21,588 nt of DNA from a virus (lineage: Duplodnaviria > Heunggongvirae > Uroviricota > Caudoviricetes), in IMG/VR virus record IMGVR_UViG_2563366997_000002. The stretch is one strand, 5' to 3'. Of this stretch, positions 3,157-20,697 are shown piece after piece. A program made the translations under genes and the position numbers. A model generated the notes under the pieces. That model worked only from the letters and a program-made list of their open reading frames with translations, did not search any database and was not told the origin of the DNA. Positions within the stretch are counted from its first letter, which is position 1. Each line of letters opens with the position of its first letter.

Positions 3157-3369
3157 TCAAGTCGCCGGGAGGTACTTGTAGATTGTTTTCACGTCCACGC
3201 CTGTCACATCAGCCACCTGCTGCCGGGTAGCGCCGTTCTCCAGCATTCTGCGGCACCGCTCCACCACTTCTTCAGTCATTATCCGGCGGCGGCCGCCGAC
3301 TCTCTCCTGCTCCATCGCTGCGGACCGACTCGGATGCATTCGGCAAATTCTAGGCCGTGATTTTTCCAA
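3157..3369 (-). pseudogene. serine DNA-invertase (Hin/Gin/Pin/Cin family) C-terminal HTH remnant
   Basis: C-terminal 45 aa, GGRRRIMTEEVVERCRRMLENGATRQQVADVTGVDVKTIYKYLPA, aligns by eye with the Hin C-terminal DNA-binding domain. The N-terminal about 140-aa catalytic domain is absent and the 5' end overlaps the upstream 266-aa gene. Confidence 0.6.
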
Positions 3370-4150
3370 TCCTCTCCATCAGATATGCCAGGATGACATC
3401 CAGTGTGCTGGTCCCATATGCATATTTGCCGGGGAAAACCAAACATTCTGACAAAACGGATGTTAACGGAGACACTGAACCATTGCCTGCTCCGCCAATA
3501 CTCATTTTTTGAGACGGGCTATACGCTGGGATTGTATAGCCCGTCACTTGTCGGCTGGTCACTGCAGACTGATCTGACCGCTGGTATGCAATTGCATAGG
3601 ATCCAGCAGCCTTGTTAGAGCACATAACTACAGCGCAGAATAAAGATTGCCCTATATTGTTAGGAGTAAATGCCAGATCGGCCTCGATCCCTCCATTCAG
3701 AAAAATCGGGAATGAACCTGCTGACGTTGTACGAATGCCGACGCCATGAGGTGTGCTTTCCTGGGTTGCGATAACCGCTCTGTCCTGTGGCGTAGCCGGA
3801 AGCGCCCCACCTGGCAGCTGATAGATGAATGCAAAAGTATTGATGTTTGCGTCCATAACCACCGCCGTATCACCAGCCATGCCGGATGCACCGGAGAAAT
3901 TAAGCCCCTGCAAAACAGAACCATTCAGCTTTGTGGATGGCTCGAGGGTCTCCAGTGACTTGAAAAGTCCGCCATCTAATCGGTTAGAGATAGCTACTAC
4001 TTTTGCACCAGACCCCATTTTTAGAAACTCTGTCTTCACTGGTGTCCATACTGATGGGGATAGTTCTGAGATCGCTTTCTCTGCCGCTGTTTGTGAGTAC
4101 ACAGGGAGTAAGGGGTTATTCAGTCCAGTTAGTGTGTAAATCAGTCTCAT
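3350..4150 (-). CDS. hypothetical protein (266 aa), probably tail-associated
   Basis: Starts 7 nt after the esterase-domain gene stop with a GAGGAT SD; Gly/Ser/Thr/Ala-rich composition. No family recognised. Confidence 0.5.
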   Translation of the reverse strand: MRLIYTLTGLNNPLLPVYSQTAAEKAISELSPSVWTPVKTEFLKMGSGAKVVAISNRLDGGLFKSLETLEPSTKLNGSVLQGLNFSGASGMAGDTAVVMDANINTFAFIYQLPGGALPATPQDRAVIATQESTPHGVGIRTTSAGSFPIFLNGGIEADLAFTPNNIGQSLFCAVVMCSNKAAGSYAIAYQRSDQSAVTSRQVTGYTIPAYSPSQKMSIGGAGNGSVSPLTSVLSECLVFPGKYAYGTSTLDVILAYLMERIGKITA

Positions 4151-4159
4151 TTTTTATCC

Positions 4160-6223
4160 TCAGAAAACGTTAATACGAAAAGCGGGGAGCCAGTCGTAAA
4201 GAGTCACGGATGTGTCATACACCCATATGATTCCAGCGGAAGATCGAACACACCCTCTTGCACCAAGAGTCCGCCCGGAAGGTTTTACAGATGCGCCGCT
4301 CTGAAGTGGGTTTTCTGCTGTCGCATAGGAAACGCGCCCAAAACGTCCAGAGGGGGCGGTCGCCAGGTTAATCAGCACGCCCTTGCCGTCCGAGCTGATC
4401 GCGATGCTCGATATAGCAGGTGGAGCACCAGTCTCATCCGTGTAGCTAAAGCCGTAATTGGCCAGACCGGAGGTGTTGATCGTAGTCGTGTCCAGCACCA
4501 GGTTCGTATACGCTGGGACATTGATTTGTATCTGCGTGGGTGAGTTCCACACGAAACTGGTCGGAACCATCCCTGACCAGCCGCTCGTAAACCACTCCTG
4601 GAGAAGCGCTCTCGCCACAGCTGCTCCGCGCCGGTTCTGGCCCGCACACGTCAAGTGCAGACCGTCTGAAATAAAATCGTACTGGTACAAACTATTGACC
4701 AGCCTGAATTGCTCTTTTCCGTGCAATCGCGTCGACGCCAGTCGCGCGTACTGGCCTGTAAATGCACCATGCCCGTCATTGACATACCCCAGCTGGGTAA
4801 TGGCGATAATCGGCGGTTCGTTTTGACCCGTTCTTGCGATGATGTCGCTGGTGATTTGTCTCTGGTACTGCCTCATCCGTGATTCATACATTCCTTCTCG
4901 TAATCCTGACCAGTCCTCGTCGGACTCTCCCTGCATCCAGTCAACGCAGAGAACAATCGGCAGCCAGCCGCGTGCTTTACAGGCCGTTACGCAGTCTTCG
5001 ATTGAATCGAGCAGATACTGATATACCTGGTTACCCCGTTTCTGGTACTCGTAAGCCTGACCAGACTGCGCACATACGATTGATAGCGTGCGCGGCATGA
5101 TTCCGGTAGCTGCAGCCATATCGCGAATGAAGGTGTTCGCGAGGCCGCTTGCGGCCGTTTCTTTATCTGTCCCACTTACTGCCTCAACCAGTGGCACCAG
5201 AGTAGTGCTGCGTGTCCCTGTACGCCTAACCCCGCCGCTGAGCATGAAAGCGTTATCAGGATATATCGGCGTTGCTGCGACAATGGTTTGATCGGCGTCA
5301 GGACAATATCCTCGAGCGTTGGATTGCCCAGCAGTCACAAAGATAAAACATACAGGCACTGTCTCTGAGTAGGGGTACACAGTAGACCCTGACAAATGAA
5401 GTCCATACTCAGGGAGCTGGTTGGCATCATCGTCGCCACCACCACCGCCATTTCCGTTATTAACAGCTACCAGGCCACCGTCTGAGTAAATCCAGTGCTT
5501 CCCACCAACCGTATAAGCTTCAACGATCTGGTTTGTGGTTGAATCAACCGTCATCCGCCACACTTTTTCACCGCCAATAAACTGCGGTATAGAACCCTCC
5601 CGGCCCAGCGCATAGAGTTCGGATTCTTGTTGGGTTAAAAGTTCGTAATATTTTCCGTCAGGACCGATTTGAATTAATCTGCCGCTTGTATTTAAAAATG
5701 GAGCCACGCGGGAAGTCTCCGGATCATATGCTGCCAGGGTCACGCTGTCTGGCGATACCTGGTATGCGTAGTCGTCACGAACCATCCGCCGTCCGGTTGG
5801 CTGCAGCGTTCCAGCGAGGTTGATATACTCATCGGCCAGAGAGCTTCCGTCCTGACTGCGGACATAGGTTGTTGAACCTGCCGGAATATTCGCAATATCC
5901 GCCTGCGCCGCCGCCAGCGTCATGTACTGCCGGCTGAGAGGGATCAGGTTTTGGCGGGCTTCATCAATAACAGCGTCGGTAGCAGCTGCCATTTTTTTAG
6001 TAGCCCCAATTATCGTATCCTGGGCGTTACCAAAACGATCTATAAAAGTATCGCTTTCGCTGTTCAGGAAATCATCGTACGCCAGGGCGTTATCATTCAG
6101 ATCCTTCATGCTATTTGAAGGTCTTGGATTGCCGGTATTATATCTTTTGTCCATACCTGTTCCTGTCTTCATCTTTTCAATGAAGCAATTAAGATTGACG
6201 CCCCGCCCCTTCAGGGCTAACAT
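4160..6223 (-). CDS. tail-region protein with SGNH/SASA-type esterase domain (putative receptor-modifying tailspike or fibre)
   Basis: Up to 687 aa. Central domain has an SGNH-hydrolase nucleophile block VTAGQSNARGY and a distal DGLH block, as in sialate-O-acetylesterase-like proteins; a fibre-like N-terminal region and a C-terminal beta-rich region flank it. The true start is probably an internal Met (6172, 6154 or 6109), because 6218..6223 overlaps the -10 element of a divergent promoter. Confidence 0.7.
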   Translation of the reverse strand: MLALKGRGVNLNCFIEKMKTGTGMDKRYNTGNPRPSNSMKDLNDNALAYDDFLNSESDTFIDRFGNAQDTIIGATKKMAAATDAVIDEARQNLIPLSRQYMTLAAAQADIANIPAGSTTYVRSQDGSSLADEYINLAGTLQPTGRRMVRDDYAYQVSPDSVTLAAYDPETSRVAPFLNTSGRLIQIGPDGKYYELLTQQESELYALGREGSIPQFIGGEKVWRMTVDSTTNQIVEAYTVGGKHWIYSDGGLVAVNNGNGGGGGDDDANQLPEYGLHLSGSTVYPYSETVPVCFIFVTAGQSNARGYCPDADQTIVAATPIYPDNAFMLSGGVRRTGTRSTTLVPLVEAVSGTDKETAASGLANTFIRDMAAATGIMPRTLSIVCAQSGQAYEYQKRGNQVYQYLLDSIEDCVTACKARGWLPIVLCVDWMQGESDEDWSGLREGMYESRMRQYQRQITSDIIARTGQNEPPIIAITQLGYVNDGHGAFTGQYARLASTRLHGKEQFRLVNSLYQYDFISDGLHLTCAGQNRRGAAVARALLQEWFTSGWSGMVPTSFVWNSPTQIQINVPAYTNLVLDTTTINTSGLANYGFSYTDETGAPPAISSIAISSDGKGVLINLATAPSGRFGRVSYATAENPLQSGASVKPSGRTLGARGCVRSSAGIIWVYDTSVTLYDWLPAFRINVF
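6195..6223 (+). promoter_or_regulatory. putative sigma70 promoter for the HTH/acyltransferase cassette
   Basis: TTGACG, 17-bp spacer, TAACAT, located 9-33 bp upstream of the first plus-strand starts. Confidence 0.4.
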
Positions 6224-6231
6224 CGCCTTAC

Positions 6232-6519
6232 GTGTTTAAACGGTTAAATAAGAGAATGATTTTAATAAATAAATACACCCCTCCAACGCAGGAAGATTTA
6301 GCCAGACTGAAATCCGCACTAAATTACTCCGGAAACCAAATGGCAGGGCTCGCAGGTGTAGCCAGCGATAGCCAATGGCGGAAATACACTGGCGGAGAGA
6401 GCCCCAGGGTAATGTCAAGACACATACTGTTTTATATTGCAGCTCAGCTTGTTCTGTCTGATGAGCAACTTAACAATGTAATAAATAAAATGCGCGATAT
6501 TGGCGCGGAGATAAAATAA
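6232..6519 (+). CDS. small XRE-like HTH protein (putative regulator), coupled to the acyltransferase
   Basis: 95 aa from a GTG start (87 aa from ATG at 6256). The segment LNYSGNQMAGLAGVASDSQWRKYTGGE resembles a Cro/C1-type helix-turn-helix. Its stop overlaps the acyltransferase start (ATAATG). AT-rich. Confidence 0.5.
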   Translation: MFKRLNKRMILINKYTPPTQEDLARLKSALNYSGNQMAGLAGVASDSQWRKYTGGESPRVMSRHILFYIAAQLVLSDEQLNNVINKMRDIGAEIK

Positions 6520-7610
6520 TGCTTGGCCTAATAAGGTTTTTTTTGGCATCGTGCGTCATTGCTTTTCACTTAACGGCTCGCATACCTGCACTTGGCAACT
6601 TTGCAGTGAATTGCTTCTATGTTATTAGTGGTTTTTTAATAACATACATTTTGCATGAAACATACAAGTTCAACTTCTCTATGTTTTGGAAAAATAGAAT
6701 ACTGAGGTTATTCCCGGCATATATATTTTTTCTCGTCATGGGCTTTCTTATTATAAAATTAATTCCATCCGCAAAGGAATTCCACTCAAACTGGACAGGC
6801 AATTTCTTACCTGGAGATTTATTAGGAAACCTCTTAATCTTCCCCTGGGCTTTCCTTTCTGATAATGCTGTAGCAAATCCATTCGGTGCCTTTTCATCCA
6901 TTTATCACTTTGCTATTGATGGTAATAGATTCAGAATAGTCACATCATCATGGTCAGTGGGTGTTGAGATAACATGTTATTTTTTATTGTGGCTTTTCAT
7001 AGCCCGAAATAAATTTACAGCCATTACGTCGATTCTGCTTTCACTGCTTTATCATGCTTACGTATATGTAGTACACCATTCTTTTGATATGGCGTATTTC
7101 CCATTCCTTGCTGCAACACTTCCTTTTAGCATGGGTTCTCTGGGTTATTTTGCCCATAGAAAGTTCAAAGCTATGTATCTTTCTCCACACAAAGCTTTTT
7201 TAATAACATTTATTTGCATCGGGATTTTTATTACCAATTGGCATTTATATACAATTAATCCATTAGGTCAGTACAACATAATACTTTACTACACCAATAA
7301 TGTAATAGCATTGTTTACAACCCTGGTATTATTAAAAATAAAGACAAACATACATCTTGAGAAAATACTCAAGTGGTTTGGTGACCTGGCCTATCCAATT
7401 TTTCTTTGTCAATATTTTGGTGGATTTCTAGCATGGCTTGCTATTGGTGGTGAAAATCGTGGCTTATCCATCTTTTTATTAGGCTACCCAATATCAATTG
7501 CACTTGGGATCGTTTGTGTAATATTAATAGACAAGCCACTAATTAAAATTAGAGCAAAAATAAGGGCGGACGCTCAAAGCAAAAATAATCAGGAAAACTC
7601 TTCAAGGTAA
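6519..7610 (+). CDS. acyltransferase family 3 (OafA/Oac-like) integral membrane O-acyltransferase
   Basis: 363 aa, strongly hydrophobic with multiple predicted TM segments. N-terminal region FHLTARIPALGNFAVNCFYVISGFLITY is typical of AT3 acyltransferases. Markedly AT-rich relative to flanks; opposite strand to the structural genes. Confidence 0.8.
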   Translation: MLGLIRFFLASCVIAFHLTARIPALGNFAVNCFYVISGFLITYILHETYKFNFSMFWKNRILRLFPAYIFFLVMGFLIIKLIPSAKEFHSNWTGNFLPGDLLGNLLIFPWAFLSDNAVANPFGAFSSIYHFAIDGNRFRIVTSSWSVGVEITCYFLLWLFIARNKFTAITSILLSLLYHAYVYVVHHSFDMAYFPFLAATLPFSMGSLGYFAHRKFKAMYLSPHKAFLITFICIGIFITNWHLYTINPLGQYNIILYYTNNVIALFTTLVLLKIKTNIHLEKILKWFGDLAYPIFLCQYFGGFLAWLAIGGENRGLSIFLLGYPISIALGIVCVILIDKPLIKIRAKIRADAQSKNNQENSSR

Positions 7611-8374
7611 ACTAAACCATTCGCTCCTTTTCCTGATGAATAGTTACCATTCCCCCCGGCACCACCTGAGCCGGGGAAACCGCCATCATCGCCAGAACTA
7701 CCGAAGTGGCCATTGCCACCCGTTGATGAAAATGCAGATCCTCCAGCCCCGCCAATAAAAGCATCAGAACCATAATACAGACCACCTTGAGATATTCCGC
7801 CAGTAATATTTAAAATGTTCCCGCCACTTCCGATACCTCCAGCAGGAACTGTAGCCCCGCCACCACTCCCTCCAGTAGCTGAGATTAAACTCCCGAACCT
7901 TGTATCACCACCATTCCCGCCTTTAGACGAGACACCAGCAGCAACAGCACTGCCACCAGTACCTATCGTCACAGATATAGTTTCGTTATCAGAAATATTA
8001 AATAACCCTTCCGAAAATCCACCAGCACAACCTCCAGATGCGCCCACACTAACTGGAGCATTCTGGCCACCTCCCCCCGCTCCCCAAACTTTCACCCGCA
8101 CTCTTTTCGTCCCTTTAGTTGGAGTGTAAGTCCCTGACTTAGTAAAGGTGACAATATTAAGCAGGCGACCGCCACCAATCGCTTTAAGAACCTGTGAATC
8201 ATCATCAGGATCAAGCTCAAGCCCCGCGCCCTCAACAACGTTTACCAGCTCACGCTGAAAGGTATTCATCATCTCAGCATTAATTATTGTCGGTGAAATA
8301 CCATTAGCGACATTACCATTAGTGTATTCACCATTAGCATCAGCGGTGTCAGTTGTACTGCCAACTTTTCTCAT
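7589..8374 (-). CDS. glycine-rich tail fibre protein
   Basis: 261 aa. N-terminus (NAEMMNTFQRELVNVVEGAGLELDPDDDSQVLKAI) resembles the conserved tail-fibre attachment domain, followed by GGxGG-rich repeats. Directly downstream of the baseplate genes. Confidence 0.65.
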   Translation of the reverse strand: MRKVGSTTDTADANGEYTNGNVANGISPTIINAEMMNTFQRELVNVVEGAGLELDPDDDSQVLKAIGGGRLLNIVTFTKSGTYTPTKGTKRVRVKVWGAGGGGQNAPVSVGASGGCAGGFSEGLFNISDNETISVTIGTGGSAVAAGVSSKGGNGGDTRFGSLISATGGSGGGATVPAGGIGSGGNILNITGGISQGGLYYGSDAFIGGAGGSAFSSTGGNGHFGSSGDDGGFPGSGGAGGNGNYSSGKGANGLVYLEEFS

Positions 8375-10659: not shown

Positions 10660-11237
10660 ACCTGACTCTCTGTTTTTTCGCTTATGATCGTGCTATCGCC
10701 GGACTGAACTTTTTTAACGTCATGGTCATGATCGTTGTGAGCATCCCGCAGCGCTTTGAGCGTTGAATTGTTCGTCTCGCAGTTATCGATGATGTCACCC
10801 GTCACCAGGAGTTTGGGGGTAACCAGCTTTACCTGTTCCGTTGCCGTCGCGGTGATGTTTCTGGCATTATTGATCTCTACATCTTTGCCTTTCGCATCAA
10901 TGAAAATTCCCTCCTCGGTCAGATGAATATTCATCCCCTGCTGGTTATAGACCACGGTTTCGCCTGGCTTAAGCCCGGTATACCGGAAGCTTTGATGGTT
11001 AGAGGCAATGACGACAGGACTGGAGCGGTCCCCGCCGAGAAAGGCAATAAGCACATCCGATCCCGCCGGTAACCCCGATGAAAAACCAAAATCAGAGAGC
11101 CGTGGGGCGCTGGCCACTTCCAGCGGAGTCTGGTACTGGATTTCCTGCACAACCCCGCTATCTTTCTGCGTGGTAATACGGCCAATGCCCAGCATGCCGG
11201 CGATGCGCGTGGCCGATTTCTTTAAATTTTGATTCAT
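10656..11237 (-). CDS. baseplate spike / assembly protein V (Mu gp45, P2 gpV-like)
   Basis: 193 aa; C-terminal His-rich apex HNDHDHD as in metal-binding spike tips; position after the hub gene. Confidence 0.75.
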   Translation of the reverse strand: MNQNLKKSATRIAGMLGIGRITTQKDSGVVQEIQYQTPLEVASAPRLSDFGFSSGLPAGSDVLIAFLGGDRSSPVVIASNHQSFRYTGLKPGETVVYNQQGMNIHLTEEGIFIDAKGKDVEINNARNITATATEQVKLVTPKLLVTGDIIDNCETNNSTLKALRDAHNDHDHDVKKVQSGDSTIISEKTESQV

Positions 11238-12319
11238 TGGTTTAGTCCGGGTATTTGCTGGTAGAAAGCATAAGGCTGGACAGCGAAAGCCTCCGGGGGC
11301 ATCAGATAAAGGCGCGCATGGGTGCCGTCACTGTCTCTGATATAAGTCACCTCTGCGATAAGCAATTCGGTGTCAGGCAGCTGCAGACTCGGGATGTTGA
11401 CCGGGATAAGCGTATTCGGCTCCCATAATTTCCCGGATTTATCGCGCCAGGAATCAATCGTCACCGTTAACTGACGGGAACGGCCGTATCGGCGGTTCAT
11501 CTCCCAGTCAATCGCTCGCTGAGCCTGTTGTGAAGCCATCAGTGTACTTTCAACAATAATGATCCGTTTTCGGTAACGCATACTGGCCGCCTCAGGATCG
11601 CGGGCCGTCGCCAGCGTCACCGAATCATAAGCCGTATCTGGCGAGAATCCTGCAATCGGCGAAATGCTCATCGATACGCCGACGTAATCAGAAAAGCGGT
11701 CAGCCATCGAACGGCGGTAATAAGCCTGTTCGATATTTACCCCTTCTGCGATACCGCTGGCCGCGCGCTTTGTCCCCACCCGGGTCAGAAATAAGTTACC
11801 GTCAGGCTGATCGTAATAAAGCAATGCCGACCAGCGGGAGACACGATCAAGTATTTCCTGTGGCGATTCCCCCCAGTTCAGGGAAAATTGCGGAACTTTC
11901 ACCAGATCATCAACGTCTGTACTTACGCCAATGTTGTAATGGGATGCGAGGCGGGAGGCTATATCAAGCGCATTACTGTTATTGATGACGTTATTTGGCC
12001 ATTCAGCAGAGCAATCAACGAGATCTGCGCACTTACTGCGGCCTGAGGCTCTGACTTCATGGCGCGAACGGGAAATAGCAGGCGACCAGTCATCAACATA
12101 CCCCGTCACTACCAGGTCGTTACCAAGCTTTACCTGACAAGGCATCCCTTCCTTTACCAGCTGCTTCTGGTCACTTCCCGGAAAATAATCCATCAGTCCC
12201 AGGTCAAAATCGGAGGGAAAACGCTCAATGCCACGGGTCACCCGCACAGAGTCCCATCCTTCAATGATTTTTCCGCCCACTGTCAGGGAGACAATATCCT
12301 GATCATTATCCGTACTCAT
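11234..12319 (-). CDS. baseplate hub protein (Mu P/gp44, P2 gpD late-control-D family)
   Basis: 361 aa; size, order (hub, then spike, gp46, J) and general resemblance to the phage tail protein D family. It does not resemble a major capsid protein. Confidence 0.7.
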   Translation of the reverse strand: MSTDNDQDIVSLTVGGKIIEGWDSVRVTRGIERFPSDFDLGLMDYFPGSDQKQLVKEGMPCQVKLGNDLVVTGYVDDWSPAISRSRHEVRASGRSKCADLVDCSAEWPNNVINNSNALDIASRLASHYNIGVSTDVDDLVKVPQFSLNWGESPQEILDRVSRWSALLYYDQPDGNLFLTRVGTKRAASGIAEGVNIEQAYYRRSMADRFSDYVGVSMSISPIAGFSPDTAYDSVTLATARDPEAASMRYRKRIIIVESTLMASQQAQRAIDWEMNRRYGRSRQLTVTIDSWRDKSGKLWEPNTLIPVNIPSLQLPDTELLIAEVTYIRDSDGTHARLYLMPPEAFAVQPYAFYQQIPGLNQ

Positions 12320-12702
12320 TGTCTCAACACCTTCATCGTCGTCGGCATAAATGCCGGATGCGGTACGCTGGCCTCCTGTATCAGTTCATTTGCCCGCGAG
12401 GCATCCTGATACAGGCGGTTGGCCAGTACCAGGGCAGGAACCGGCACCGCAGTATTGATTTGCATCAACTCACTCAGTCCGGATGAAGTCTGAGCCATGG
12501 TATTCAGAAAAGCGGTTCTCACGTCCATCAATGCCGTATAAAGATCATCATCGCCACGGTCGCCCGCCAGTAGTAACGCGGTATCCAGTTGCCCGGCCAC
12601 GCGTTGAGTGATTTCTTCGGCCTCATTACGACTGGTTGGGTTGTAATCTGCAGCAGCATCCGTCATGGCTCCGGTACATAGCACTACGATCAGCGTGTTC
12701 AT
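12316..12702 (-). CDS. hypothetical protein, possibly the 3' remnant of a DNA-circulation (Mu N-like) gene
   Basis: 128 aa from the first ATG; an internal ATG at 12666 has a GGAG SD. Its stop overlaps the hub start (ATGA). It overlaps the decoration-protein ORF by 41-77 nt in another frame, consistent with a deletion junction. Confidence 0.4.
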   Translation of the reverse strand: MNTLIVVLCTGAMTDAAADYNPTSRNEAEEITQRVAGQLDTALLLAGDRGDDDLYTALMDVRTAFLNTMAQTSSGLSELMQINTAVPVPALVLANRLYQDASRANELIQEASVPHPAFMPTTMKVLRQ

Positions 12703-13135
12703 GGTGCCAGCCAGTTGCTGGCTGCTTTCGGAACGCTGGTAAAGGTGCCTGGGCGCTGTCTTTCAGGAAGATGGCCAGCGGACGTAGTGCTGTTTTCAGT
12801 TCCGGCGCAGTCCAGGAATCGTCAAAAATAATATGATTCTGGTTGAACTCGCCCATCAGGTACAGGCCGCCGGACTGATCGCCATGGGTGGAAGCGTCAA
12901 CATCATCAACCAGAATGGCCGCTGGCGTCTCGCTACCATCCGTTGCGGTTTTCACACTGGCTGTATATTTGCCACTGGCGGTGATCATGCCAAGCACAGT
13001 GCCACGCTTATACACACCGCCGGTGATCGTGCCGGTGTCAGTGACCAGTTGCAGCGTACCGGCAATTAACTGATCCGGCACAAACACTGAACTCTTCATG
13101 CCAGGTGCAAAGGCATTCTGACCAAATTGATCCAT
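12626..13135 (-). CDS. head decoration protein (lambda gpD-like) with aberrant 3' extension
   Basis: First about 125 aa fit the head-decoration pattern (...AAILVDDVD...GLYLMGEFN...LKTALRPLAIFLK). The last about 40 aa (PLPAFRKQPATGWHHEHADRSAMYRSHDGCCCRLQPNQS) look like out-of-frame read-through. Start overlaps the scaffold-like gene stop (TAATG). Confidence 0.6.
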   Translation of the reverse strand: MDQFGQNAFAPGMKSSVFVPDQLIAGTLQLVTDTGTITGGVYKRGTVLGMITASGKYTASVKTATDGSETPAAILVDDVDASTHGDQSGGLYLMGEFNQNHIIFDDSWTAPELKTALRPLAIFLKDSAQAPLPAFRKQPATGWHHEHADRSAMYRSHDGCCCRLQPNQS

Positions 13136-13725
13136 TATTTCTCTCCTTTAATGGAGTTGTAGAGGCCGGTCATCTGGTTTACCAGTGCCGATTTACCGTT
13201 CTCTTTCTTGCCGCCATCCGGATTCAGACGGACATCATGGCTTTCCTGCATGCGCTGATCGAGAGAGCGCCCGCGCGTTGCCTTTGGTTGCAAGGCTGGC
13301 GCCGTGGATGCCAGAACATCGATAGCGGCGGTAGAGCTCATCCCGGTATTGAATGCGAGTGAAGCGGCCAGTGACGGATTCGCCGCAGCGTGCTTACTGC
13401 CGAAGATACGGGCGCAACGTTTACGCTCGGCGGCGCGGGCATTTTTCACCGCTTTGCTTTCTTTGCGGTCATCGTCGCCGTCATCTTCGGAATCGTCATC
13501 GTCTTCAGCCGCATCCAGGTCGTCACCGTCATCTTCAGCGTCATCATCACGATCGTCGTTTTCCGCGTCATCTTCGCGTTCATCGTCCCCGGCATCATCT
13601 TCGCGCTCATCCTCTTCCGCGCGACGGCCTTTCGCTTTTTTGGCCTTTTTGTCCTCTTCCTCTTCGGAAGCAGTCGCGCCACGGCCAATAAGATGAGCAA
13701 AACTAAAAGTCTTTTTCTTCGCCAT
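13135..13725 (-). CDS. acidic scaffold-like head protein (Nu3 position)
   Basis: 196 aa from ATG at 13725, one nt after the protease stop; extremely D/E-rich central tract. Position between protease and decoration protein. Confidence 0.55.
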   Translation of the reverse strand: MAKKKTFSFAHLIGRGATASEEEEDKKAKKAKGRRAEEDEREDDAGDDEREDDAENDDRDDDAEDDGDDLDAAEDDDDSEDDGDDDRKESKAVKNARAAERKRCARIFGSKHAAANPSLAASLAFNTGMSSTAAIDVLASTAPALQPKATRGRSLDQRMQESHDVRLNPDGGKKENGKSALVNQMTGLYNSIKGEK

Positions 13726-13726
13726 T

Positions 13727-14593
13727 TCAGGCTCCTGTTTTTTCAAGTAAGTTTCTGAACGCAGCATCAGGAGGACACACCTCATCAGCCAGTCCAAGTT
13801 CCACACCATCAGCAGCCATAAAACAGGCAGCCTGAGTACTTTTGATAACCTTTGCGCTAATCCCCCGATTTCTGGCGACGGTATTCACAAACAATTCGCC
13901 CATGGTGTTGATGTCCTGCTGAATAGCCGCCAGCGCTTCATCTGACAGCTCTCTCAGCGGTGCCCCCTCAGCCTTACGGGAACCGTAGGTGATGATGGTG
14001 ACTTTGAGGCCGTCATCTTTTATCCGCTGGGTCCAGTCAAGGTGCATAGTGATCACACCAACTGAACCCACACCACCGGTTCGGGGAACAGAAATCCGGT
14101 CCGCCGCACTGGCAATCGCATAGGCGGCGGAATAGGCGCTTTCCGTCAGAATGGCATGGATGGGCTTTTTCCCGCGGGCGCCATAAATGACATCGACCAG
14201 ATCGAAACATCCGGCGACCTCGCCTCCTGGCGAATCAATATCCAGGCAGATCCCTGTAATATCGGGGTCTTCCATCGCAGTCAGGAAGGCCTGACGAATG
14301 CCGTCATAGCCTGTCATGCCACTGTATGGGCGCAGGCTACCCAGCTTCTGCACCAGGGTCCCACATATCGGGATGACAGCGACGCCCAACACATTGTCAT
14401 AACCCGGGTCGCTACGGGATTCCCGCCCCCTGTTATCGTCGTATCCATACCAGTCATCATCCATGGCAAGAGAGGATTCGATTTTACTGATGCCAAACCG
14501 GTCCATAACGGATGCCATGATGACTTCAGCTTTACTTGGGTGCAGCGCCAGCGGTGTATTAAAAAGGCGCTGGGCCAGATGAGGTAGATTCAC
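13727..14593 (-). CDS. head maturation protease (S49/ClpP-like, lambda gpC family)
   Basis: 288 aa; recognised by eye as the S49/ClpP-like prohead protease family by overall sequence pattern, size and position after the portal; start overlaps the portal stop. Confidence 0.85.
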   Translation of the reverse strand: MNLPHLAQRLFNTPLALHPSKAEVIMASVMDRFGISKIESSLAMDDDWYGYDDNRGRESRSDPGYDNVLGVAVIPICGTLVQKLGSLRPYSGMTGYDGIRQAFLTAMEDPDITGICLDIDSPGGEVAGCFDLVDVIYGARGKKPIHAILTESAYSAAYAIASAADRISVPRTGGVGSVGVITMHLDWTQRIKDDGLKVTIITYGSRKAEGAPLRELSDEALAAIQQDINTMGELFVNTVARNRGISAKVIKSTQAACFMAADGVELGLADEVCPPDAAFRNLLEKTGA

Positions 14594-20607: not shown

Positions 20608-20697
20608 TGGCGGAGAGAGGGGGATTTGAACCCCCGGTAGAGTTGCCCCTACTCCGGTTTTCGAGACCGGTCCGTTCAGCCGCTCCGGCATCTCTCC
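20608..20697 (-). tRNA. serU: tRNA-Ser (anticodon CGA)
   Basis: The reverse complement is a 90-nt class II tRNA (GGAGAGATGCCGGAGCGGCTGAACGGACCGGTCTCGAAAACCGG...GGGGGTTCAAATCCCCCTCTCTCCGCCA) with a 7-bp acceptor stem, CGA anticodon, long variable arm and encoded CCA. Confidence 0.93.

Follow-up and report, generated by a model that had tools for sequence, protein, structure and literature searches.

Described modules and the E. coli cassette

Phage-borne O-acetyltransferases alter serotype, vaccine epitopes and phage susceptibility, and to our knowledge little has been described of how their expression is controlled, apart from the phase-variable gtr operons. The closest described counterpart of the locus considered here is a three-gene module of the Serratia myovirus vB_SspM_BZS1 (MT843275), in which p26, encoding a protein with a C-terminal membrane helix, p25, encoding a helix-turn-helix (HTH) protein, and p24, encoding an acyltransferase-3 (AT3) enzyme, run against the structural genes between the tail fibre p23 and the esterase tail protein p27 (Bujak et al. 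2020, PMC7556043). Its authors had 'no clue' as to the roles of p25 and p26, speculated on an interplay of acetylase and deacetylase, and reported that p25/p26-type pairs in Serratia genomes always adjoin an acetyltransferase; promoter, operator and the range of partner enzymes are left undescribed in that work (PMC7556043). Here we analysed a stretch of 21,588 nucleotides (nt) of Caudoviricetes DNA (IMG/VR record IMGVR_UViG_2563366997_000002, hereafter the window), which matches the serU/yodB prophage remnant of Escherichia coli HS, with 100% identity over 6150-7650, and carries between a tailspike and a tail-fibre gene a cassette of two genes, one for an HTH protein of 87 amino acids (aa) and one for a 363-aa AT3 enzyme. 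This cassette is a truncated member of the type already seen in BZS1, and for the window itself the result is a modest one; new here are the conserved promoter-operator, the Aca-like HTH fold, the loss of peptide and leader, and the breadth of captured enzymes. We consider it rather probable that the cassette encodes a lysogenic-conversion O-acetyltransferase on an autorepressed operon, as a two-gene moron among receptor-binding genes and a shortened copy of an operon widespread in prophages.

The likeness to BZS1 extends to the surroundings. Both cassettes point against the structural genes and are bounded on one side by a short tail fibre that adjoins a Mu gp48-like gene and on the other by an esterase (pfam03629) tail protein; both have an AT3 gene directly downstream of the HTH gene, and the two HTH proteins are 67% identical. 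BZS1 still has p26, the gene of the 57-aa membrane peptide, together with leader and hairpin, whereas the window, as the truncated form, lacks them; the two AT3 enzymes are essentially unrelated (31% identity over 49 residues), and BZS1 is a viable phage whereas the window prophage is a remnant. A Serratia quinivorans prophage (locus L032) shows the synteny of the window, including the N-terminal anchor of the tailspike.

A second counterpart is Oac of Shigella phage Sf6, for which we know of no dedicated repressor. This enzyme acetylates the O-antigen (PMC7448272) and, like the window enzyme, is AT3-only, about 330-360 aa long and provided with the motifs R/K-X10-H, FFXISG and RXXR; it is likewise encoded by a temperate-phage gene transcribed against the structural genes (PMC7556043), although no close sequence relationship between the two was found. 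Going by a reference title in PMC7556043, oac adjoins an integrase gene, unlike the window AT3 gene. The anti-CRISPR-associated (Aca) proteins and the C-terminal HTH domain of AcrIF24 share with the window family a small HTH placed second in its operon, a core-promoter palindrome and variable cargo, and for the Aca autorepressors the palindrome in the core promoter has been found and validated (Shehreen et al., PMC9410906). The window family differs from them in that its cargo consists of envelope enzymes and a membrane peptide, in that no anti-CRISPR gene is adjacent, and in that sequence similarity is marginal. As for the flanks, the SGNH tail proteins of Klebsiella prophages have esterase activity, and acetyltransferases are also present in 5-30% of these prophages (PMC13123978); such SGNH/SASA esterase receptor-binding proteins, known from temperate Klebsiella phages and as gp63.1 of coliphage G7C, resemble the flanking tailspike of the window rather than the cassette, and an HTH-AT3 operon is not described in that study (PMC13123978).

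The cassette comprises the following features:

6195..6223, + strand: sigma-70-type cassette promoter (-35 TTGACG at 6195-6200, 17-nt spacer, -10 TAACAT at 6218-6223)
6203..6219, no strand assigned: degenerate palindrome copy, CCGCCCC-TTC-AGGGCTA, with 3 mismatches
6256..6519, + strand: 87-aa XRE-type HTH gene, predicted autorepressor (phrog_20491)
6519..7610, + strand: 363-aa AT3-only membrane acyltransferase gene, predicted surface-glycan O-acetyltransferase

An earlier inspection of the letters by themselves (the sequence-only reading) had described two translationally coupled genes opposite to the structural genes, inserted in the tail-fibre region with lower guanine-plus-cytosine (GC) content than the flanks, and encoding an HTH-like protein of 95 aa and an AT3 membrane enzyme. 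This description was borne out except for the length of the small protein. The two open reading frames (ORFs), 6232(GTG)..6519 and 6519..7610, are on the + strand, and between 3350 and 19127 every long flanking ORF is on the minus strand; the stop of the small ORF and the ATG of the AT3 gene share one base (TAATG), GGAG stands 9 nt before that ATG, and the AT3 gene is translationally coupled to the HTH gene. The alternative GTG start at 6232 would give 95 aa; judging from homologue starts, the small gene almost certainly begins at ATG 6256 and encodes 87 aa, because all homologues begin M-R/I-L-I there and the 'transcriptional regulator' that RefSeq lists for strain W21 is 87 aa long. GC content is 0.352 in the AT3 gene and 0.432 in the small gene, compared with 0.527 in the tailspike, 0.483 in the fibre and 0.509 in the whole window. 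In Klebsiella phage ST16-OXA48phi5.2, which served as the empty-site comparison, the homologous tailspike lies 22 nt after the preceding 257-aa gene and there is no cassette, which argues for an insertion between tailspike and tail fibre; the view of the cassette as a foreign, AT-rich insertion among receptor-binding genes is thus supported. Both cassette ORFs are intact in E. coli copies differing by 1.5%, and the HTH ORF is intact, with conservative substitutions only, across all E. coli copies compared.

The assignment of the 363-aa protein to the AT3 family is firm. It scores 57.1 bits against Pfam PF01757 (Acyl_transf_3; cut-off 31), its residues 4-336 covering model positions 6-323 of 326, and it matches phrog_3333 'O-acetyltransferase'. 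The signature motifs, located in transmembrane helix (TMH) 1 (R/K-X10-H), in TMH2 (FFXISG) and at TMH3 (RXXR) of described enzymes (Pearson et al., PMC7448272), appear as R6-X10-H17, with exactly 10 residues between, F33YVISG38 and R60ILR63. A Kyte-Doolittle scan gave 8 clear hydrophobic segments and 2-3 weaker ones, about 10 in total as judged from hydropathy windows only, so that both the signature residues and the hydrophobic segments whose lack would have contradicted the sequence-only reading are in place. The architecture is AT3-only, that is, 363 aa with no second Pfam domain, no fused SGNH domain and no 11th helix plus linker. Close relatives were not found among sequenced phages (the best, from a Vibrio phage, is 28% identical), and neither solved structures searched by sequence nor NCBIfam and PADLOC gave a match. 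Its exact sequence is encoded on 665 contigs, and the cluster around it (90% identity or more) extends to Klebsiella pneumoniae, K. quasipneumoniae and K. aerogenes.

A promoter-embedded palindrome and a predicted autorepressor

The cassette promoter lies inside the 101 nt that separate the divergent starts of the tailspike (6154) and the small gene (ATG at 6256), and matches 9 of the 12 consensus positions. That the cassette has its own TTGACG-17-TAACAT promoter was likewise part of the sequence-only reading; the promoter is present and homologous to a family promoter, but as a pattern match it does no better than chance, and its support was drawn from homology, local promoter statistics not being used as evidence. 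When the upstream regions of about 100 related loci were aligned, they were found to share TTGACA, 2-4 nt, and TAGCACC-AAA-GGGGCTA overlapping a TATTAT -10, an arrangement conserved over gamma- and beta-proteobacteria. The window promoter is homologous in sequence and spacing to this family promoter (TTGACA-N2-4-TAGCACCAAAGGGGCTA-TTAT), aligning with it base for base and with identical spacing as TTGACG-CC-CCGCCCC-TTC-AGGGCTA-ACAT. Homology to a conserved promoter, with the same spacing to the embedded palindrome, validates it, and host RNA polymerase would transcribe the cassette from 6195-6223 in the lysogen.

The palindrome itself, 17 base pairs of the form TAGNNCC-N3-GGNNCTA, was counted with at most 2 mismatches within 400 nt upstream of the HTH gene and occurs in 76 of 96 distinct loci, compared with 0.07 expected per 400 nt. 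In the loci whose context was inspected it sits between -35 and -10, right after the -35. Its inner bases change jointly on both arms (CA/TG, CC/GG, GC/GC, AC/GT) and track the pair of residues that precedes QWRKY where helix 3 of the HTH protein begins: DH is paired with TAGACCC/GGGTCTA in 5 of 5 cases, and GR with TAGGCCC/GGGCCTA in 3 of 4, one arm being imperfect in the remaining case. The window copy has its right half nearly intact, and its left half is without the TA; no second copy beyond chance was found in the window.

A second E. coli cassette (L104:4001-5331) adjoins intS/yfdC and has the same promoter, about 90% identical to that of the window, with the palindrome CTGCCCC-TTC-GGGGCTA; its AT3 enzyme is 48% identical to that of the window. 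We take this site to be the one where the K-12 prophage CPS-53 carries gtrABS-like genes (yfdGHI).

The sole family match of the small protein is phrog_20491, of unknown function. Three homologue searches returned 194, 1,158 and 1,545 clusters, a breadth of more than 1,100 clusters that settles the doubt whether the small frame is conserved at all. Family members have 86-105 aa, come from Enterobacterales, Pseudomonas, Burkholderiales and Neisseriales, and share an invariant QWRKYTGG. An AlphaFold2 model required a deep alignment: with 14 close homologues the predicted local distance difference test (pLDDT) score was 62, and with the 126 diverse sequences used instead it rose to 93.8, with a predicted template-modelling score of 0.80. 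The resulting model has five helices, helices 2-3 forming the HTH, as in an XRE-type fold, and so agrees with the HTH-like label given earlier. The top Foldseek match was AcrIF24 (probability 1.0, 28% identity over 68 columns), followed by Aca10, HigA, a phage 186 regulator, Aca1 and Aca2, with C-proteins also among the neighbours; in a sequence-profile search the best PDB match was again the C-terminal HTH of AcrIF24 (E-value 0.055). On the predicted model, the closest solved structures are autorepressors of mobile-element operons. Aca5 was considered as an identity for the protein and ruled out, since Aca5 has 60 aa and HTH_3/HTH_28.

From fold, architecture and covariation we infer that an HTH dimer would bind the palindrome and repress its own operon, and that this autorepression would hold the coupled polytopic membrane enzyme at a low and steady level. 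If so, it would explain how a potentially toxic enzyme of this kind is kept at a safe level in prophages. Several observations pull the other way. The Shine-Dalgarno sequence of the small gene, AAGAGA, abuts the ATG and is poorly spaced; promoter-like sites in 5900-7900 number 4 against 5.9 expected from shuffles, with no local enrichment; and the degenerate operator may leave autorepression weak or absent in the window copy. Curated HTH models did not match the protein (no Pfam family at an E-value of 0.01 or below, no NCBIfam model), and the Foldseek E-values are modest (best 0.019). The mutual information between helix 3 and operator, 1.78, was above that of all 5,000 shuffles (mean 1.20), but the test is uncorrected for shared ancestry. 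Likewise, a gene of 35% GC may be subject to H-NS silencing in E. coli.

Lost upstream elements and captured enzymes

In most related loci the HTH gene is second in its operon, after a leader, a 56-aa peptide gene and a hairpin. The full order is a near-consensus sigma-70 promoter with the palindrome, the leader, the 56-aa peptide gene, a GC-rich hairpin, the 87-aa HTH gene and an optional enzyme gene. All three upstream elements are missing from the window, and the promoter stands directly before the HTH gene in three lineages, namely E. coli (window and L104), Lonsdalea and Kosakonia. The upstream region shared by the related loci ends at the ATG of a gene of 51-60 aa and contains the leader GGTAGCGG-loop-CCGCAGCCCGAACCCGAAAGGAAGAAC. 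This leader, which is roughly 50 nt long and precedes the peptide gene, reads GGUAGCG-N-loop-N-CGCAGCCCG...CCCGAAAGGA (for example L032:5745-5792 and L007:4736-4786) and is conserved from Enterobacterales to Burkholderiales; one base pair of its hairpin covaries (CG 21, GC 17, AU 7) and the rest is invariant, and no Rfam family matched. It may be an RNA-level control element. The peptide (51-60 aa; phrog_6330/9071, without an assigned function) is coiled at its N-terminus, contains an NRExxWYP motif and ends in a transmembrane helix; its motif is present in 48 of the 80 IMG/VR loci read. Examples of its gene are:

L032:5793-5963: membrane-peptide gene (Serratia)
L007:4787-4960: membrane-peptide gene (K. 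oxytoca)
L095:4790-4963: membrane-peptide gene (phage BZS1)

A GC-rich hairpin with a T-run, AAGCCCCGAAAGGGGCTTTTT (for example L032:5968-5990), separates the peptide gene from the HTH gene; it is located 10-45 nt ahead of the HTH ATG and ends 10-15 nt short of that start codon. It looks like an internal terminator or attenuator that would set the ratio of the peptide to the HTH protein and enzyme.

The genes on the other side of the HTH gene are of many kinds. The IMG/VR search gave 277 matches, of which 80 loci were read, a downstream gene being defined as a co-oriented ORF of at least 100 aa within 150 nt. Such a gene was present in 55 of the 80 loci, and 40 of these 55 are glycan-modifying: AT3 in 29 (in 11 sequence clusters), hexapeptide acetyltransferase in 9, GT25 in 1 and GDSL in 1; the others are DUF1796 in 1 and unknown or recombinase genes in 14. 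The coupling of an HTH protein to an enzyme of this kind, which had been thought unusual, is accordingly the commonest arrangement among HTH genes with a downstream gene (29 of 55 with AT3, and 11 with other glycan enzymes). AT3 enzymes behind different HTH proteins are 22-30% identical and the corresponding HTH proteins 52-81%, which indicates that the enzymes were captured independently. In the window, Lonsdalea, Serratia, Kosakonia, Scandinavium and phiE131 the enzyme start codon overlaps the HTH stop or directly adjoins it. The downstream genes seen in individual hosts and phages include:

Citrobacter braakii: WaaZ Kdo transferase
Lonsdalea, Serratia and Achromobacter: AT3
Buttiauxella: GT2
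Salmonella arizonae: GT4
Kosakonia: Wzy-like
Scandinavium and Buttiauxella: hexapeptide acetyltransferase
Salmonella enterica (747 index blocks): hexapeptide acetyltransferase with a convergent HtrL gene
Burkholderia phage phiE131: SGNH/GDSL hydrolase

At the S. enterica loci (L096-L101) the peptide and HTH genes are followed by the hexapeptide acetyltransferase and the convergent HtrL/YibB gene; these loci lie at the tail-fibre end of prophages, with Baseplate_J and tail-fibre-assembly genes, near sopA or effector genes of the Salmonella pathogenicity island 5 (SPI-5) type. At one IMG/VR locus (L122:1107-2270) an HTH protein 95% identical to that of the window is followed by a 295-aa DUF4214/DUF1796 (papain-like) protein and no AT3, as if the downstream gene had recently been exchanged.

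The peptide-HTH pair is also found without any enzyme, between Q and holin in Klebsiella oxytoca prophages, in Bordetella phage IFTN8 and at tail-fibre ends. Since the pair exists without an enzyme, the HTH protein would regulate a portable operon and not AT3 as such, so that the idea of a regulator dedicated to this AT3 gives way to that of a portable promoter-operator-regulator unit. In its broadest form our proposal is that promoter, palindrome, leader, peptide and HTH gene make up a widespread, undescribed, self-repressing prophage carrier operon, which has repeatedly captured unrelated envelope-glycan enzymes in gamma- and beta-proteobacteria; we hold this tentatively, at a little under an even chance. 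Were it true, conversion or exclusion genes could be traced through the HTH gene by guilt by association, as anti-CRISPRs are through aca, the 56-aa peptide would be a new exclusion effector, and the leader hairpin would be a second, RNA-level, control point.

The enzyme-free pairs also lend themselves to another explanation, in which the HTH protein would be the leftover regulator or antidote of the lost 56-aa peptide, without a role towards AT3, the enzyme simply using the promoter and the codon overlap reflecting a compact insertion. With the pair so widespread without an enzyme, its primary function would be independent of the enzyme, and the window has indeed lost peptide gene, leader and hairpin; moreover, in the second E. 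coli cassette an intact AT3 stands behind an HTH protein whose invariant residues are broken (W41C, GG to SN), and HigA-type antitoxins are among the structural neighbours. Yet the HTH ORF remains intact and conservatively substituted in the E. coli copies, with a ratio of nonsynonymous to synonymous substitution rates (dN/dS) of 0.27 even between the window HTH and that of the second cassette, and the overlap or abutment of enzyme start and HTH stop recurs in independent captures. A strong hairpin behind the peptide gene would also make the 'toxin' outnumber the 'antitoxin', contrary to what is seen in toxin-antitoxin pairs. Membership in the type II (HigA-like) toxin-antitoxin systems found no backing, with no known toxin family adjacent, no Pfam, NCBIfam or PADLOC match for the upstream peptide and no PADLOC match for the HTH protein. 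We regard a leftover antidote as unlikely.

Very improbable, in our view, is an anti-defence locus of the acr-aca type, in which the small first gene would inhibit host immunity, the HTH protein would be an Aca-like repressor and the AT3 enzyme would be unrelated cargo. The operon does have the acr-aca architecture, with a strong promoter containing a core palindrome, a small gene first and the HTH gene second; its HTH protein has Aca10, AcrIF24, Aca1 and Aca2 as closest structures, and the conserved leader hairpin recalls 5' untranslated-region motifs reported for aca operons. However, the first gene encodes a tail-anchored membrane peptide and is absent from the window, and known anti-CRISPR (Acr) proteins are typically soluble. 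The 40 glycan-modifying genes among the 55 downstream genes are envelope enzymes, not anti-defence genes, and the HTH protein is not Aca5. No known or validated anti-CRISPR gene adjoins the HTH gene, whose partners are the membrane peptide and envelope enzymes.

Receptor-binding neighbours, host surface and substrate

The autorepressed O-acetyltransferase proposed here is flanked in the window by two receptor-binding genes:

4160..6154, - strand: tailspike gene with a sialate O-acetylesterase (SASA/SGNH) domain (PF03629, E-value 1.8e-11; phrog_4201 tail fibre; RefSeq annotation in HS)
7589..8374, - strand: glycine-rich tail-fibre gene (Pfam PF21722, phrog_863), following the Mu gp48-like gene

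The tailspike is divergent from the cassette, its N-terminal anchor, NTGNPRPSNSMKDLNDNALAYDDF, is conserved, and its DNA is 84% identical to that of a Klebsiella prophage tailspike; the tail fibre is convergent with the AT3 gene and overlaps its 3' end by 22 nt. The cassette segment was found in 32 of 5,426 complete E. coli genomes. Tail fibre and cassette are linked in all 32, and no E. coli version of the same fibre without the cassette was seen among the 32 genomes carrying the fibre. The tailspike next to these copies is variable, being of the SASA type in about 16, SGNH/GDSL in at least 8, TolB-like in 3 and CotH in 1, with the rest unannotated, so that a SASA or SGNH/GDSL esterase tailspike adjoins at least 24 of the 32; different tailspikes behind one N-terminal anchor indicate swapping of receptor-binding domains. 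The cassette adjoins receptor-binding genes in E. coli, Serratia and phage BZS1 alike.

In this setting, the AT3 enzyme, whose family membership is shown, would move acetyl groups from cytoplasmic acetyl-CoA over the inner membrane onto a periplasm-exposed polysaccharide, presumably O-antigen or capsule. Acetylation would alter the surface read by phage receptor-binding proteins and might result in serotype conversion, phage exclusion or both, and the adjoining esterase tailspikes might be the matching acetyl-removing enzymes. A role in lysogenic conversion or exclusion is the most plausible one; it matches the speculation published for BZS1, and, like that, is something we infer. If the HTH protein is an autorepressor acting on a conserved operator, its gene together with the TAGNNCC-N3-GGNNCTA promoter would provide a sequence marker, usable in E. 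coli, Klebsiella, Salmonella, Serratia and Burkholderia, for surface-modifying genes missed by K-locus and O-locus typing, and the contest between prophage acetylation and de-acetylation by esterase tailspikes would become directly testable in the safe commensal E. coli HS.

The state of the prophage bears on who would benefit. With its Mu-like baseplate it looks now defective, a remnant, and the HS stretch examined has no annotated gene for capsid, sheath, tube, tape measure or integrase; since it is a remnant, any present benefit would fall to the host and not to a viable phage. It is here that one may ask whether the enzyme modifies some other envelope molecule, such as peptidoglycan, enterobacterial common antigen or the lipopolysaccharide (LPS) core, to the advantage of the host through resistance to lysozyme, complement or immunity. 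Reviews of AT3 proteins list many substrates (PMC9558356, PMC7448272); the gene persists unchanged on hundreds of contigs and across genera although the prophage is defective, which points to host benefit; and the cassette stands beside SASA, SGNH, TolB-like and CotH tailspikes without covarying with any one receptor-binding protein. On the other hand, the recognisable downstream genes of the family are usually of the LPS or O-antigen type (WaaZ, Wzy-like, GT25, with HtrL nearby), most of the adjoining tailspikes are acetyl-esterases, and the AT3-only architecture is that of the O-antigen-acetylating Oac of Sf6 (PMC7448272). Cassettes of the tail region, in E. coli, Serratia, Salmonella and phiE131, adjoin receptor-binding genes, even though the pair also lies elsewhere in prophages. 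We consider modification of another envelope molecule improbable, and slightly more so than a leftover antidote.

The reading of the enzyme as a lysogenic-conversion O-acetyltransferase of O-antigen or capsule meets several difficulties of its own. AT3 enzymes also modify enterobacterial common antigen, and family membership leaves the substrate undefined, AT3 proteins having many substrates that include peptidoglycan and antibiotic precursors (PMC9558356, PMC7448272). In a prophage that is a remnant, exclusion cannot serve a live phage. E. coli HS has an O9 polymannan locus and a group 1 capsule locus, and we know of no description of the standard O9 polymannan structure as O-acetylated. A link of the cassette to the HS capsule type was considered and rejected, the HS-specific wzy region being present in 14 of 5,426 genomes and only four HS records overlapping the cassette set.

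At least 15 of the 32 cassette carriers are of type O9 (at least 13 among 60 listed O9 genomes, plus 2 named O9:H10), compared with 285 of 5,426 overall; this strong enrichment could reflect clonal inheritance as well as specificity, the two being indistinguishable here, and was not used as evidence on the substrate. The HS capsule locus (L108:38469-50000, corresponding to HS 2163469-2175000) is Klebsiella-like, with wzc, wbaP, wzy and glycosyltransferases, and neighbours the O9 locus; the part of it that was examined has no annotated acetyltransferase.

Several minor features of the surrounding DNA may be added. The tailspike and the following 266-aa gene (3350-4150, - strand) have about 84% DNA identity to genes of ST16-OXA48phi5.2. 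An IS4-family transposase gene (1504-2832, + strand; 442 aa, Nterm_IS4 and DDE_Tnp_1) lies downstream of the tailspike region in the window, and the matching place in E. coli HS is without an annotated transposase, so that the window stems from a strain related to HS. In the stretch corresponding to window 11234-13809, the HS annotation passes from a head decoration gene through a short hypothetical gene directly to a baseplate gene, and strain W21 retains a Mu gp43-like gene upstream of the baseplate genes. A tRNA-Ser(CGA) is located at 20608-20697 of the window, about 2 kb past the terminase gene.

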